Positions 37,768-63,771 of a stretch of DNA of 64,000 bases are shown here, piece after piece (the stretch's first letter is position 1; each line of letters begins with the position of its first letter). Position numbers and translations under genes: made by a program. Under the pieces are notes generated by a model. That model had not been told where the DNA came from, searched no databases, and saw nothing but the letters and a program-made list of their open reading frames with translations. Source of the stretch: an uncultured Candidatus Saccharibacteria bacterium (lineage in GTDB: Bacteria > Patescibacteriota > Minisyncoccia > Phycocordibacterales > CSBR16-119); the NCBI GenBank assembly GCA_964426385.1, contig CAYRQF010000003.1, positions 22,938 to 86,937 of the forward strand. The letters are read 5' to 3'.

Positions 37768-37792
37768 CGCTCCGCAAAATATCTATTTGAAA

Positions 37793-37905
37793 AGGCTCCG
37801 GAAATCGGGGCTTTTTCAACTCCTCGAAAACGCAAGCGCCGGCTTTTGTCTAAACGACAAAACCGGTTACGTTCTCGGACTTTCAAAAGCCCCGATTTCC
37901 TTCGT
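37793..37905. repeat. nested long inverted repeat / stem-loop
   Basis: Outer 16-bp stem GGAAATCGGGGCTTTT / AAAAGCCCCGATTTCC. Inner imperfect stem ccggcttttgtc...gacaaaaccgg. Confidence 0.6.
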
Positions 37906-37985
37906 TTTAATTTTCAAATGTATATTTTGCTCCGCTTAGGGGGGAAAGGGGTGGACCTTGCCAAGTAGATGTTTTTTGTCTAAGG

Positions 37986-58866: not shown

Positions 58867-59934
58867 ATGATAGATCGAACATACACTATAAATATAAGCC
58901 GTCGAACCCTATCTAATATCGTGATTCTGGGTTTGGTAGTCTTCGCTCTGTTCATTATGAAAGAGCTTGTTTTCGTTATTCTTACCTCTGTAGTCTTGGC
59001 CTCGTTCATCCGCACAGCTGCGGTGTCAGTGAAAAATCGCTTCGGACTGTCTAGGATACTATCCGTTGCGCTGATGTATCTCATTACATTCTGTGCATTG
59101 GCGGGAATATTCTATTTCTTCATTCCTGTGTTAGTGGTTGAGATATCTAACCTCTTGCCGGTTTTGACCAAATACCTACCAGCAAATCTGCCAATAGTTC
59201 AGAATCTTGATATCGATACATTGGGGGCTATAAGTACAGAGGGTGTTGCGGCGGGAGAGAGCCTCGGTCCGCTCGTCGACAATTTCCGGTCTTTTTTGCT
59301 CATACTAGCGTCAGGATTCGGCAATACTTTGTCTGCATTCTTCGGCGGGGTATTGAACATAGTGGTAGTCATCGTCGTTTCGTTCTATCTCTCGGTCTCG
59401 GCAGATGGTATCGAGTCATTCCTGCGTATACTTTCACCTATCGATAAAGAGGCCTATGTGATAGATCTGTGGAAGAGGTCTCAGCGCAAGATTGCCCTTT
59501 GGATGCAGGGTCAGCTTTTTCTCGGAGTCGTTATCGGAATCCTGACGTTTATCGGACTCACACTTCTCGGTGTTCCGCAGGCGATACTTCTCGCCGTTGT
59601 CGCCGCGATATTTGAACTCATTCCGTTTGGAATATTTTTGGCAGCTGTACCAGCGATATCTATCGCTTACGGTGGAGGAGGTATATCTCTCGCATTGATG
59701 GTCGCCGCACTTTATACCATTATCCAACAGCTCGAGGGCTATCTCATCTCGCCACTCGTTATGAACAAGATGACAGGAGTTTCCCCGCTGGTGGTCATCC
59801 TTTCAGTTTTGGTGGGTGTTCATCTGGCTGGATTCTGGGGGTTGATACTCGCTGTCCCTGTCGCCGTAACTCTGCTTGAGTATGTTAACGATCTCGAAAA
59901 AGAACGCATCCTTCGATTACAAAATGAGCAATAG
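58867..59934 (+). CDS. AI-2E family transporter (UPF0118/PerM-like)
   Basis: 8-TM pattern. AVVAAIFELIPFGIFLAAVP. The ORF track starts at 58801, overlapping glyQS. Confidence 0.75.
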   Translation: MIDRTYTINISRRTLSNIVILGLVVFALFIMKELVFVILTSVVLASFIRTAAVSVKNRFGLSRILSVALMYLITFCALAGIFYFFIPVLVVEISNLLPVLTKYLPANLPIVQNLDIDTLGAISTEGVAAGESLGPLVDNFRSFLLILASGFGNTLSAFFGGVLNIVVVIVVSFYLSVSADGIESFLRILSPIDKEAYVIDLWKRSQRKIALWMQGQLFLGVVIGILTFIGLTLLGVPQAILLAVVAAIFELIPFGIFLAAVPAISIAYGGGGISLALMVAALYTIIQQLEGYLISPLVMNKMTGVSPLVVILSVLVGVHLAGFWGLILAVPVAVTLLEYVNDLEKERILRLQNEQ

Positions 59935-61405
59935 ACCTGTATATATAACTACGACGCTTCCATACGTGAACAACGACCCTCATGTCGGTTTTGCCATGGA
60001 GATAATCCGTGCGGACGTACTAGCTCGATACCATAAGCTTATGGGTAAAGAGGTTTTTTTCAATACCGGAACAGACGAGCATGGACAGAAACTCCTCGCT
60101 GACGCAATGAAGGCAGGGAAGGAGGTCAAAGACTACGTCGATTTTTACGCCGAGAAGTTCCGTGGACTGAAAGACCTCCTTAATATCACCGACGAAGTCC
60201 ACTTTATCCGCACGACCGATGTCCATCATGAGGCAGCAGCACAGGCTCTCTGGAAGCTCGTCGATGGCAATGGCTACATCTACAAGAAAAATTACCAGAC
60301 CAAATACTGTGTCGGCTGCGAGCTCGAGAAAACAGATTCTGAACTAGGTGACAAGGGTCAGTGTCCGATACATCCAAACAAGGAAATAGAACTAATCGAT
60401 GAGGAGAATTACTTCTTCGCTTTTTCAAAGCTCGAGGGAAAACTTAAAGAGCTATATGATAATAATCCTCGTCTCGTTATTCCGGAATTCCGTTTCAACG
60501 AGATGAAGGCATTCCTCGACAGGGGTCTCCAGGACTTTTCTATATCCCGTCAGAAGGAAAAGATGTCGTGGGGTGTGCCGGTACCAGGGGATGACAAACA
60601 TGTCATGTATGTTTGGTTCGACGCACTCACGAACTATATCTCTACACTAGGGTGGCCAGAGGACGCTGAAGGCAACTATGCGAAATTCTGGCAGGACGGC
60701 CTAAAAATCCAGTACTGCGGTAAGGATAACCTCCGTCAGCAATCTATGATGTGGCAGGCGATACTTCTCGCAGCGAATCTACCAAATACAGATCATATAA
60801 TCATCGATGGGTTCATAAACTCTGGTGGACAGAAGATGAGTAAGTCTTTGGGAAACGTTATAAATCCTTACGACCTTATAAAAGACTATGAATCTGTTGC
60901 AGGAGATCTTGCACCAGATGTTTTGCGTTATTACATGCTTCGTCATGTAAATCCTTTCGAGGATTCAGACATGACACTTGATACATTTAAGGAAGCCTAT
61001 AATTCAGGTCTAACAAACGGACTAGGTAATTTGGTTTCTAGGGTGATGAAAATGGCCACTACTTATGGTGTGAGTCTTTCGGAGGATGAAAAAACAATGA
61101 CTTATTATGGTACAGGAACAGAAGATTTTTTGAATGACTACAATATGATGATAAAAATGGATGAGATTTGGGCAAATTTTAAAAGTATTGATGAGTCTAT
61201 AACAAGAACTGAACCCTTTAAGAAAATAAAGACAGATCCAGATCAAGCAAAAAGCGACGTCCATACAATGTTGGTCCATTTGCTTGGAGGTGCTCTCGCG
61301 TTGGAACCATTTTTACCTAAAACATCTTTAATTCTGCAAGTTCTAATAAAAGAGAATAAGATGCCTGAAACTCCGCTCTTTAACCGTCTAGAAGCTAAAA
61401 GCTAA
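59924..61405 (+). CDS. metG: methionyl-tRNA synthetase (short form); the last codons come from the short repeat (…RLEAKS)
   Basis: HVGF (HIGH-like) motif, KMSKS, single Zn-knuckle. The ORF track starts at 59876. Confidence 0.9.
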   Translation: MSNRPVYITTTLPYVNNDPHVGFAMEIIRADVLARYHKLMGKEVFFNTGTDEHGQKLLADAMKAGKEVKDYVDFYAEKFRGLKDLLNITDEVHFIRTTDVHHEAAAQALWKLVDGNGYIYKKNYQTKYCVGCELEKTDSELGDKGQCPIHPNKEIELIDEENYFFAFSKLEGKLKELYDNNPRLVIPEFRFNEMKAFLDRGLQDFSISRQKEKMSWGVPVPGDDKHVMYVWFDALTNYISTLGWPEDAEGNYAKFWQDGLKIQYCGKDNLRQQSMMWQAILLAANLPNTDHIIIDGFINSGGQKMSKSLGNVINPYDLIKDYESVAGDLAPDVLRYYMLRHVNPFEDSDMTLDTFKEAYNSGLTNGLGNLVSRVMKMATTYGVSLSEDEKTMTYYGTGTEDFLNDYNMMIKMDEIWANFKSIDESITRTEPFKKIKTDPDQAKSDVHTMLVHLLGGALALEPFLPKTSLILQVLIKENKMPETPLFNRLEAKS

Positions 61406-61417: not shown

Positions 61418-62203
61418 ATGCGTTACTTCGATATCCATTCGCATCTAAACCTTTCGCCTCTATCGGAAGATAAGGCGAGGATCATAAAAACTCTCGAGGA
61501 AAAAGAAGTGAGTACAATTACTGTGGGTGTTGATCTCGTAACTTCTGAACAAGCTGTCGAGATCGCACAGGATAGCGTGAATCTTTTTGCTTCTGTAGGC
61601 TTTCACCCATCAGACGCGGGGAAGAAAGAGTTTGATGCAGAAAAATTCCGCGATCTCGCGGGTAGGGAAAAAGTAGTCGCCATCGGCGAATGCGGATTAG
61701 ATTACTTCCGGGTAGAGTCGAGCGACACTGAGACCAAGAATTTGCAGAAAGAAATTTTTATAAAACAAATCGATTTATCTATCGATAAAAATTTACCACT
61801 TATCCTCCATGTTCGTCCACAGAAGGGGACAATGGACGCCTATGAAGATGTTTTGGAAATTCTCCAATCTTACTCTCGCAAAAAACCAAGAGGCGACGTG
61901 CATTTTTTCGTTGGTTCTCCGGAAATTGCCCAAAGATTTTTGAGTCTAGGTTTTTACTTGTCATTCACTGGGGTTGTCACATTTGCCCGAGACTATGACG
62001 AAGTCATCAGACTCACCCCATTAGACCGTATCCTTACAGAAACCGATGCACCATTCGTCACACCCGTTCCATATAGGGGGCAGACATGCGAGCCATGGAT
62101 GGTGGAGGAGGTAGTCAGAAAGATTGCTGATATCAAGGGGCTCGAACTGGAAGAATTCCGTCTCCAAGTGATTCAGAACACCAAAAGCCTTTTTGGGGTC
62201 TAG
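61418..62203 (+). CDS. tatD: TatD-family metal-dependent deoxyribonuclease
   Basis: MRYFDIHSHL, ...HFF..., ETDAPF motifs. Confidence 0.9.
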   Translation: MRYFDIHSHLNLSPLSEDKARIIKTLEEKEVSTITVGVDLVTSEQAVEIAQDSVNLFASVGFHPSDAGKKEFDAEKFRDLAGREKVVAIGECGLDYFRVESSDTETKNLQKEIFIKQIDLSIDKNLPLILHVRPQKGTMDAYEDVLEILQSYSRKKPRGDVHFFVGSPEIAQRFLSLGFYLSFTGVVTFARDYDEVIRLTPLDRILTETDAPFVTPVPYRGQTCEPWMVEEVVRKIADIKGLELEEFRLQVIQNTKSLFGV

Positions 62204-62234
62204 GTACTTGACAGAAGTGCGTACCCATGATATC

Positions 62235-62690
62235 TTTTGAAATATAGAAATTGGTGATTCACCCGAAGAGATCTCCTGGGCTGTCGCTCCAGGAACAAGA
62301 CTTTTAGGGTATGCGGGTCACTCCGTTAAACTGAACGAACTGCAGTTTCTGGTGGGTTCTCGGCGGGGAGTCGTGCGCGTTGGCGAACAGTCGCACGCTC
62401 TCCTCTGGGAACCATGTTCTTCAATCAACACCCTTCGGGGTTCATCATAAGTGAGCGTGCGTCTGTTCCTGCAGGGAAAACGGGCTTGGTGGTGGCCTTG
62501 CCATCCTTGCGACGATGCATTTCTCGCCCACGAGCCTAGCGACCATGTCGCTGGGCTCGTTCCTTTTTTACCTAATATTGCGCCCATTTACTATTACCAA
62601 GCCTTCTGATAGTATGACCCTAACGTTTCGTTCGACTGCCTTGAAATTACAGGCCGTCGCTTGGTCCGATACGATGCGTTTTTTCTTTAT
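62235..62690 (+). ncRNA. candidate structured non-coding RNA, unidentified class; strand uncertain
   Basis: ~450 nt with no credible ORF in any frame. GC clearly above flanks. Multiple perfect hairpins (CGAGCC-AGCGAC-catg-GTCGCT-GGCTCG; ACCC-UUCG-GGGU). Ends in a T-run. TTGACA-17-TATCTT promoter-like sequence at 62207-62235. Confidence 0.3.
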
Positions 62691-62726
62691 CAAAAATTGA
62701 AAATTATTAATTAAAGTTAAACAAAA

Positions 62727-63230
62727 ATGGAAGAAACAGCAAAGAAACAAATCTACGAGCTCGGATACCATGTCCTCCCGACATTGTCCGAAGACGAGGT
62801 GACGAAAGTAGTAGGGGGCATCAAAGATCTCCTGTCTGGAGCAGAGGCTACTGTTATCGCTGAACAGTTTCCACAGATGATGAATCTAGCTTATGAGATA
62901 GGTAAAGACCTCGAGAACAAGAACAGGAAGTTCGGTAGTGCCTATTTCGGCTGGATTAAGTTCGAGATCCCGACTATGGCTATCGAAGGTTTCAAGGAAA
63001 CTATGGACAAGAATCTAAGTATCCTACGCTTCATTATCATCAAGACTGTGCGCGAGAGTACTCTAGCGACACCAAAGCTTGCTCACAAGGGCATGATTCG
63101 CCGAACGCCTACAGATACTGATGCTGCGGCACCTATGGATGAGGCCGCTGTCGACAAGAAGATCGACGCCATGCTTGAAGAAGATGCAGCCGTTCCAGCA
63201 GTTGAAGGAGCGTTGCCAGAAGTTAAATAG
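62727..63230 (+). CDS. rpsF: 30S ribosomal protein S6 with an acidic C-terminal tail
   Basis: S6 pattern YELGYHVLP...; rpsF-ssb-rpsR gene order. Confidence 0.9.
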   Translation: MEETAKKQIYELGYHVLPTLSEDEVTKVVGGIKDLLSGAEATVIAEQFPQMMNLAYEIGKDLENKNRKFGSAYFGWIKFEIPTMAIEGFKETMDKNLSILRFIIIKTVRESTLATPKLAHKGMIRRTPTDTDAAAPMDEAAVDKKIDAMLEEDAAVPAVEGALPEVK

Positions 63231-63273
63231 TCTCTTACAATAGGGCTAGCATTATAAATAACTTCTCAATCAA

Positions 63274-63738: not shown

Positions 63739-63771
63739 AACCCAACAATCATTAATAATAACCTAATCAAC

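Follow-up and report, generated by a model that had tools for sequence, protein, structure and literature searches.

What lies between tatD and rpsF in an uncultured Candidatus Saccharibacteria bacterium, and does it include a gene for a small RNA (sRNA)? The locus belongs to a stretch of 64,000 nucleotides (nt) (GenBank assembly GCA_964426385.1, contig CAYRQF010000003.1, positions 22,938 to 86,937), which we call the window and in which all positions are counted unless a related locus is named. An earlier note had singled out ~450 nt upstream of rpsF (62235-62690) as a structured, guanine- and cytosine-rich (GC-rich) region devoid of open reading frames (ORFs) and as a candidate noncoding RNA. 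The window belongs to a Paceibacteria-like member of the Patescibacteria. For comparison we used 182 loci around homologues of ribosomal protein S6 (L001 to L182 where single loci are named), the closest of which by S6 are metagenome-assembled genomes labelled Patescibacteria or Paceibacterota. We find that the flagged interval consists of two units, a ~325-nt promoter-to-terminator RNA followed by the promoter and S6:S18-type leader of rpsF, because alignment with relatives separates the downstream promoter and leader from the upstream RNA. The interval can no longer be treated as one element, since the RNA ends at 62570 and rpsF accounts, with its promoter and leader, for 62588-62685. For the upstream unit, 62243-62570, we put the chance at about even that it is a stand-alone, structured, lineage-specific sRNA gene giving rise to a discrete transcript with some function. 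On the best reading, this gene is one version, much remodelled and confined to its species, of a dispensable RNA gene that is found in the slot in about half of the related lineages.

A candidate small RNA gene downstream of tatD

Transcription of the RNA is predicted from a sigma-70-type promoter with an extended -10 element, placed just 3′ of the tatD stop codon, and from a strong intrinsic terminator, which together would delimit a + strand transcript of ~325 nt (Table 1). The earlier note had proposed a TTGACA-17-TATCTT promoter and a T-run at the opposite end; both are present, the promoter with a TG extension in addition and the T-run 3′ of the terminator stem. In a consensus scan the promoter scored 10/12 plus the TG extension, making it one of 8 sites in the window that score at least 10/12, and it was the sole match in the 64 kb, on both strands, to the pattern TTGAC[ACT]-N13-15-TGnTAnnnT. 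The terminator is the only one 3′ of metG-tatD. As promoter and terminator are both on the + strand, the locus has the layout of a Rho-independent sRNA gene with its own signals on one strand. No second copy of the RNA was found in the window.

The predicted fold is more stable than expected by chance. For the + strand of 62240-62572 the minimum free energy (MFE) was -141 kcal/mol (z = -6.4), compared with z = -3.2 on the - strand, and a second control run gave z = -5.9 (+) and -3.9 (-). In this run 49 stretches of the window had a mean z of -0.5 (standard deviation 1.6, minimum -4.6), and the + strand fold of the RNA was more extreme than 49/49 of them. When the ten window spacers longer than 200 nt were compared, the tatD-rpsF spacer had the lowest + strand z (-7.1), with a clear strand asymmetry that exceeded that of the other long spacers. 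Its GC content, described before as clearly above that of its neighbours, is indeed raised (0.54 against a window mean of 0.46, standard deviation 0.04), although at about 2 standard deviations it is neither exceptional nor unique.

From its 5′ end, the predicted RNA opens with a branched domain and continues with a GC hairpin of 60 nt, the exposed CUUCAAUC linker and the UUCG tetraloop hairpin; a long 3′ hairpin and the terminator complete it. All hairpins quoted in the earlier note were recovered, at 62275-62293 (CCTGG..CCAGG), 62430-62441 (ACCC-UUCG-GGGU) and 62530-62560 (the terminator stem). Positions 62385-62407 and 62446-62468 form a 23-nt inverted repeat, complementary at 19/23 positions, and pairing between them is mutually exclusive with the central hairpin and with the 3′ hairpin. 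This alternative pairing could be a conformational switch or, equally, the trace of a duplicated hairpin module. GTCGCT is present three times in the spacer, and these copies and the inverted repeat hint at an origin of the spacer by duplication. We speculate that the RNA would act in trans, by way of the exposed linker or by serving as a scaffold for protein binding. In cis, its terminator would stop transcription of both metG-tatD and the sRNA before rpsF, which has a separate promoter and S6:S18-type leader. A search for targets of the CUUCAAUC linker in the window and in rpsF start regions returned only 8-9-mers with duplexes of -6 to -8 kcal/mol, which is chance level. Likenesses to T-box, CsrB-like and Y-RNA-like elements (the words GGUGGU, GGA and GGGGUUCAUC) were seen by eye and were dropped because no model supported them.

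Variation between strains bears on the 3′ half of the RNA. The sequence is 100% identical in L081, L082 and L084 and 97% identical in L083, where 14 alignment columns of the RNA differ from the window, 11 of them within 62467-62500. At this tip of the 3′ domain, indels of +1 and -4 together with substitutions turn GGC-UU-GGU..GCC-UU-GCC into AUGGGA..UCCCAU, and the hairpin is kept. Three substitutions in the stems of the same domain all preserve pairing (U.G to U-A, U.G to C-G and A-U to G.U), and one further difference weakens the terminator. The strain differences lend mild support to constraint at the RNA level, and this applies to the 3′ domain only.

Table 1. Predicted features of the tatD-rpsF spacer, with the hairpin shared by related loci (last line, positions within each locus)
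Feature	Position	Strand	Description
sRNA promoter	62208-62236	+	TTGACA, 17-nt spacer, TG-extended -10 TGATATCTT; predicted start ~62243
Predicted ~325-nt small RNA	~62243-62570	+	Ends placed from promoter and terminator
5′ domain	62247-62351	+	Branched fold including the CCUGG..CCAGG hairpin; MFE structure only
Central ~60-nt GC-rich hairpin	62355-62413	+	GGUUCUCGGCGGGGAG...CUCUCCUCUGGGAACC; in MFE and centroid structures
41-codon ATG ORF	62414-62539	+	Begins in the exposed linker; its end falls within the 5′ arm of the terminator
Exposed linker	62419-62426	+	CUUCAAUC, within the GUUCUUCAAUCAAC linker; longest predicted-unpaired stretch (unpaired-probability profile)
UUCG tetraloop hairpin	62430-62441	+	ACCC-UUCG-GGGU; sequence reading and consensus fold
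3′ domain	62451-62527	+	Long irregular hairpin with hypervariable tip, 62467-62500
Intrinsic terminator	62530-62570	+	14-bp stem, 3-nt loop, TTCCTTTTTT tail; arms 93% complementary
Proximal rpsF promoter	62588-62616	+	TTTACT, 17-nt spacer, TG-extended -10 TGATAGTAT; distinct from the sRNA
S6:S18-type rpsF leader	62625-62685	+	H1 62625-62632/62672-62679; H2 62634-62660; bulge CUUGGUCCGA 62661-62670; then U-run
Unit-1 hairpin and tail	L166 664-738; L172 271-343; L182 1648-1719; L002 3477-3548		

The promoter and leader of rpsF

The downstream part of the interval belongs to rpsF. A TTTACT...TAnnAT block like that of the proximal rpsF promoter lies 7-10 nt 5′ of AACGTTTCG in most relatives, with or without the sRNA; the exceptions are L165, which has TTGTCT, and L174, which is without the block. 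The promoter shows 0 differences between the window and L083. The leader is near-identical in L001, L002, L165, L166, L170 and L172, whatever lies upstream, and among leaders from Paceibacteria GUCC is invariant (23/23) and GGUCC is present in 21/23. In the closing helix H1, 72% of cells are paired, compared with 39-54% when the helix is slid; there are 21 double-change cells, 6/8 pairs have double changes, and the observed score was reached by 0/500 shuffles.

The S6:S18 motif is a stem-loop with two conserved cytosines in its bulge (Fu et al. 2014, PMC3895269; see also Matelska et al. 2013, PMC3854524, for the rpsF leader). The element at 62625-62685 resembles it in its GGUCCG bulge with two invariant cytosines, its covarying closing helix and its placement in the 5′ untranslated region of the rpsF-ssb-rpsR operon, which encodes S6 and S18. 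These hallmarks mark the 3′ ~100 nt of the interval as a known kind of cis-regulator, a predicted S6:S18-type autoregulatory leader of rpsF that would be bound by the S6:S18 dimer. A leader of this type covers no more than the final ~60-100 nt of the interval and leaves the 325-nt RNA unexplained. About one fifth of the flagged interval appears to be this already known leader type, which the Rfam 15 scan of 62100-62800 did not report in this lineage.

The genes around the spacer (62204-62726) are metG (59876-61405), tatD (61418-62203), rpsF (62727-63230), ssb (from 63274) and rpsR (from 63772). The regions upstream of rpsF, ssb and rpsR (62690-62726, 63231-63273 and 63739-63771) are A/T-rich and have no Shine-Dalgarno-like sequence. 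Elsewhere in the window, the spacer at 37768-37985 contains long nested inverted repeats with fold z-scores of -9.8 (minus strand) and -5.4 (plus strand), and resembles a bidirectional terminator block.

The tatD-rpsF slot in related genomes

Inside one genus-level clade, the spacer between tatD and rpsF differs sharply from one relative to the next. L166 (S6 93% identical to that of the window) has a 412-nt spacer with a different unit of ~150 nt; inserts are also present in L172 (86%, 358 nt) and L182 (70%, 430 nt), while L168 (73%, 686 nt) has a ~390-nt unit and L002 (69%, 595 nt) has two tandem units. No insert is present in L165 (89%, 131 nt), L170 (86%, 124 nt), L167 (75%, 88 nt), L173 (71%, 130 nt), L178 (71%, 152 nt) or L001 (70%, 186 nt). 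The same slot in L163 (480-1830) contains at least 3 small ORF genes; a ribosome-binding site and a terminator accompany each of them, and one of the encoded peptides ends in GPGGGCC. This sharp variability characterizes the tatD-rpsF slot, as judged from the sequences compared, as a hot spot for small accessory transcription units.

Several of the inserts share a plan. At the tatD stop, L166, L172, L182 and L002 (here its first unit) each have a TTGACn-N17-TGnTAT promoter, after which come a structured RNA and a terminator. These unit-1 RNAs have in common a 60-nt hairpin core, CAUUCCCGGCGGG..CCUCCUCCCGCCGAGGGAUGUCGGUAC. Across the hairpin and its tail (CATTCCCGGCGGG..CCTCCTCCCGCCGAGGGATGTCGGTACTTT), stem and flanks are invariant (~45/60 nt) in genomes whose S6 proteins are only ~70% identical, and variation is confined to an apical part of ~15-20 nt; the enclosing unit, which runs from promoter to terminator at the tatD stop, is ~150 nt long. 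The hairpin matched no Rfam family and nothing in viral contigs. Both tandem units of L002 (3406-3880) have an extended -10 promoter and a terminator, and each is built around a CGGCGGG-type hairpin. Another promoter-RNA-terminator unit, of 280-360 nt, lies 5′ of the rpsF promoter in the more distant Paceibacteria (L004 3538-3842, L005 3443-3792 and L086 1348-1741), with partial copies in L003 and L085. Near its 5′ end it has GGUGAU, joined in L005 and L086 by AGGAGGGAUCC, both complementary to the 3′ end of 16S rRNA, and the variation in its small hairpins is compensatory (UCCU/AGGA, UUCA/UGAA and CCUC/GAGG). Like the unit in L168, those in L004, L005 and L086 are analogous to the window RNA. 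In L174, the rpsF leader itself includes a hairpin and GUUCUUUUGUUCAAC module, and no promoter intervenes.

How closely the window RNA is related to these units is less clear from the statistics than from its position. The same type of promoter occupies the same genomic position, at the tatD stop, in the window and in L166, L172, L182 and L002. In an alignment, the central hairpin and that of L166 share the words TTCYCGGCGGG, TGGCGAACA and CTCCTC, and a GUUCUUCA-like motif lies 3′ of the main hairpin in the window as in the second unit of L002, L168 and L174. Smith-Waterman comparison of the window RNA with L002 unit 2 and L168 gave z = 2.6-2.7, a score reached by 1-2 of 200 shuffles, and was not significant for the remaining units. 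Profile searches with nhmmer made no link between the window RNA and the relatives' hairpin core. MAFFT and RNAalifold applied to the window RNA, L002 unit 2, L168 and L174 yielded no shared structure, as these sequences could not be aligned. With promoter position, promoter type and short words shared and yet weak statistics, we treat the window RNA as a remodelled, effectively orphan version. The best match of the relatives' hairpin covariance model in the window, itself weak (14 bits, E ~0.02), is at 59239-59301, ~575 nt 5′ of metG, where a GCGGCGGG..CUCGUCGA hairpin precedes a U-run; this is probably an ordinary terminator. A mobile element was also considered for the insert and rejected, as its borders show no terminal repeats or target duplication and the conserved 24-mer had no match in viral contigs.

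Weighing the readings

A rather unlikely explanation is that the spacer is non-functional sequence with fast turnover, made of duplicated terminator-like GC hairpins of which the last serves as the tatD terminator, and that any transcript from the promoter-like site has no function of its own. GC hairpins of high stability and a well-matching promoter may arise without function, and several results weigh against a functional sRNA, some of them also in favour of such a spacer. Six related lineages are insert-free, some of them with S6 86-89% identical, so the element appears dispensable, and close relatives vary in presence and absence, with 0, 1 or 2 units per lineage. With the window RNA as query, blastn and nhmmer matched only the strain copies among the 182 loci. 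The relatives' hairpin covariance model had no match at 62355-62413 at E up to 10, and with a covariance model of the 3′ half of the window RNA the E values at the homologous sites in relatives were 1.4-6.7, a level that unrelated terminators reached as well. Across species, neither conservation nor covariation was found for the window RNA in the sequences compared. Between strains, the change 62321 C>A alters the predicted fold of the 5′ domain, which leaves that domain without comparative support, and divergence outside the variable patch (1.0%) is not clearly below that at third codon positions of the neighbouring genes (0.2-4.5%). The internal repeats suggest an origin by duplication, and the genes in L163 show that unrelated small genes can occupy the slot elsewhere. 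What a non-functional spacer does not readily explain is the recurrence of a TG-extended, near-consensus promoter at one position in five lineages, the extreme fold z-score with its strand asymmetry, the invariant stem and flanks in the relatives' hairpin and the preservation of pairing from strain to strain.

A more ambitious form of the sRNA reading holds that the window RNA, the unit-1 RNAs and the L004/L005/L086 units are one ancient, position-conserved, very fast-evolving RNA gene tied functionally to the S6 operon. We consider this doubtful. If it were true, the RNA might titrate ribosomal proteins or the 3′ end of 16S rRNA as a decoy or sponge, or be associated with RNA polymerase or the ribosome, and it would be the first-described sRNA class specific to Patescibacteria within the literature searched.

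It is improbable, in our estimate, that the region is instead a long 5′ leader or attenuator of rpsF-ssb-rpsR, in which the upstream promoter would feed rpsF through a regulated terminator, possibly with pyrBI-like coupling by way of the 41-codon ORF. In pyrBI-type attenuators of E. coli, translation of the leader is coupled to transcription termination. The ORF at 62414-62539 is similar in that it crosses the structured part and has its stop codon in the terminator, and it stays open in L083 despite the +1 and -4 indels; in 8/10 units an ORF ends at the terminator or close to it. The alternative pairing 62385-62407/62446-62468 would offer a possible switch, the module in L174 is part of the rpsF leader, and the missing Shine-Dalgarno sequence cannot be used as an argument against small ORFs in this organism, as genes here are without one. 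Against this stands the frequency with which chance alone produces ORFs of this kind: 32% of dinucleotide shuffles of the window RNA contain an ORF of at least this length ending at the terminator (15% with an ATG start), and per unit the expectation is 6-32% of shuffles for eight units. Neither the start codon nor the peptide is conserved, the ATG not being kept in L002 unit 2, L168 or L174, so we found no conserved leader ORF overlapping the terminator beyond chance. Unlike in a pyrBI-type attenuator, no anti-terminator competing with the terminator stem was found, and the downstream operon has a conserved promoter of its own (TTTACT-17-TAnnAT) between terminator and leader, in relatives with and without the insert.

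Still less credit is due to the idea of a small protein gene, one of the + strand ORFs of 32-61 codons, or of a decayed pseudogene, which we regard as very unlikely. Both strain variants keep the 41-codon ORF open, and small protein genes occupy the slot in L163. However, no homologues were found for the 41-aa product, the longest spacer ORF (89 aa, minus strand) had no match among 1.84 billion representative proteins, and none of six spacer ORFs had a significant Pfam match (best E 0.23). The earlier statement that no credible ORF lies between tatD and rpsF, a spacer of 523 nt, holds up. The ORFs of the relatives' units cross the conserved hairpin in different frames, the variable patch alters 8-9 consecutive residues, and ORF lengths are within chance.

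That the region encodes a highly divergent housekeeping RNA (RNase P RNA, transfer-messenger RNA (tmRNA), signal recognition particle (SRP) RNA or a 6S-like RNA) missed by the Rfam models in Patescibacteria is scarcely credible: a size of ~325 nt, a strong promoter, a stable structure and the absence of any such RNA elsewhere in the 64 kb fit it, but the family searches, the predicted structure and an empty locus in close relatives do not. With Rfam 15 at permissive E, 62100-62800 gave only three chance-level matches (E >= 5.5); the RNase P models (RNaseP_bact_a/b) had no match there up to E 10, and no covariance-model match to domain IV (helix 8) of SRP RNA was found. Neither Rfam nor ARAGORN reported a tmRNA, and the RNA ends in a hairpin and U-tract, with no tRNA-like end or tag ORF. 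For 6S RNA there was no Rfam match, and the predicted MFE and centroid folds are multi-domain, with no rod and central bubble. Over the whole window there was no tRNA and no Rfam family at gathering level, ARAGORN found no tmRNA or tRNA at the spacer in the window and 16 related loci, and Rfam scans of 16 and then 8 related loci, at gathering and at permissive thresholds, gave only noise, with no family recurring across loci. The P4 helix of RNase P RNA has universally conserved strands of the AGUCC / ACAGAA type; on reading 62237-62570, AGUCC and the P4 consensus are absent. The P4-like pairing of GGGCUUGG with CCAAGCC suggested in the earlier note proved to be 8 nt long, spanning the terminator and falling in the spacer of the rpsF promoter, and is most likely due to chance. 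A gene of this kind would be retained in close relatives, whereas the locus is empty in L165, L170 and L173 (S6 71-89% identical) and the sequence is unconserved even at 93% S6 identity. An RNase P or tmRNA variant lacks support on these grounds: no Rfam or ARAGORN match, no P4, an end at a terminator, and an empty locus in relatives with S6 86-89% identical.

The earlier note's identification therefore stands in part. An ORF-free, structured region with promoter and terminator on the + strand and no match to a known family is a legitimate candidate for an RNA not yet assigned to any family, while the suggested RNase P or tmRNA variant is unsupported, and with Infernal searches negative and relatives showing no conservation, the very outcome that the note had named as refuting, its reading as a conserved housekeeping RNA fails. 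In practice the value of this result is mainly negative, namely that the region is not RNase P or tmRNA. Beyond this, Patescibacteria have very small genomes with few recognisable regulators, and full-text literature searches returned no description of sRNAs or regulatory RNAs in them; if transcribed, the RNA would be an experimentally addressable sRNA candidate in this group. Comparison of the slot also indicates how fast such genes may be gained, remodelled and lost beside an essential ribosomal operon.

Among known systems, 6S and Ms1-type RNAs, which bind RNA polymerase, are abundant and stable, measure 180-300 nt, have strong promoters and are poorly conserved in sequence, bear some resemblance to the predicted RNA, but the window RNA is predicted to lack their rod with a central bubble, has no Rfam 6S signal, is unconserved in close relatives and ends at a terminator. 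Base-pairing sRNAs are typically shorter than its ~325 nt and far less structured. The sRNA reading finds its nearest parallel in species-specific, Rho-independent bacterial sRNAs, some of which are the 3′ end of an upstream operon: like them, the candidate has its own sigma-70 promoter and a strong intrinsic terminator, measures a few hundred nt, folds stably around a single exposed linker, carries no clear coding signal, turns over rapidly in sequence and is patchily distributed among relatives.

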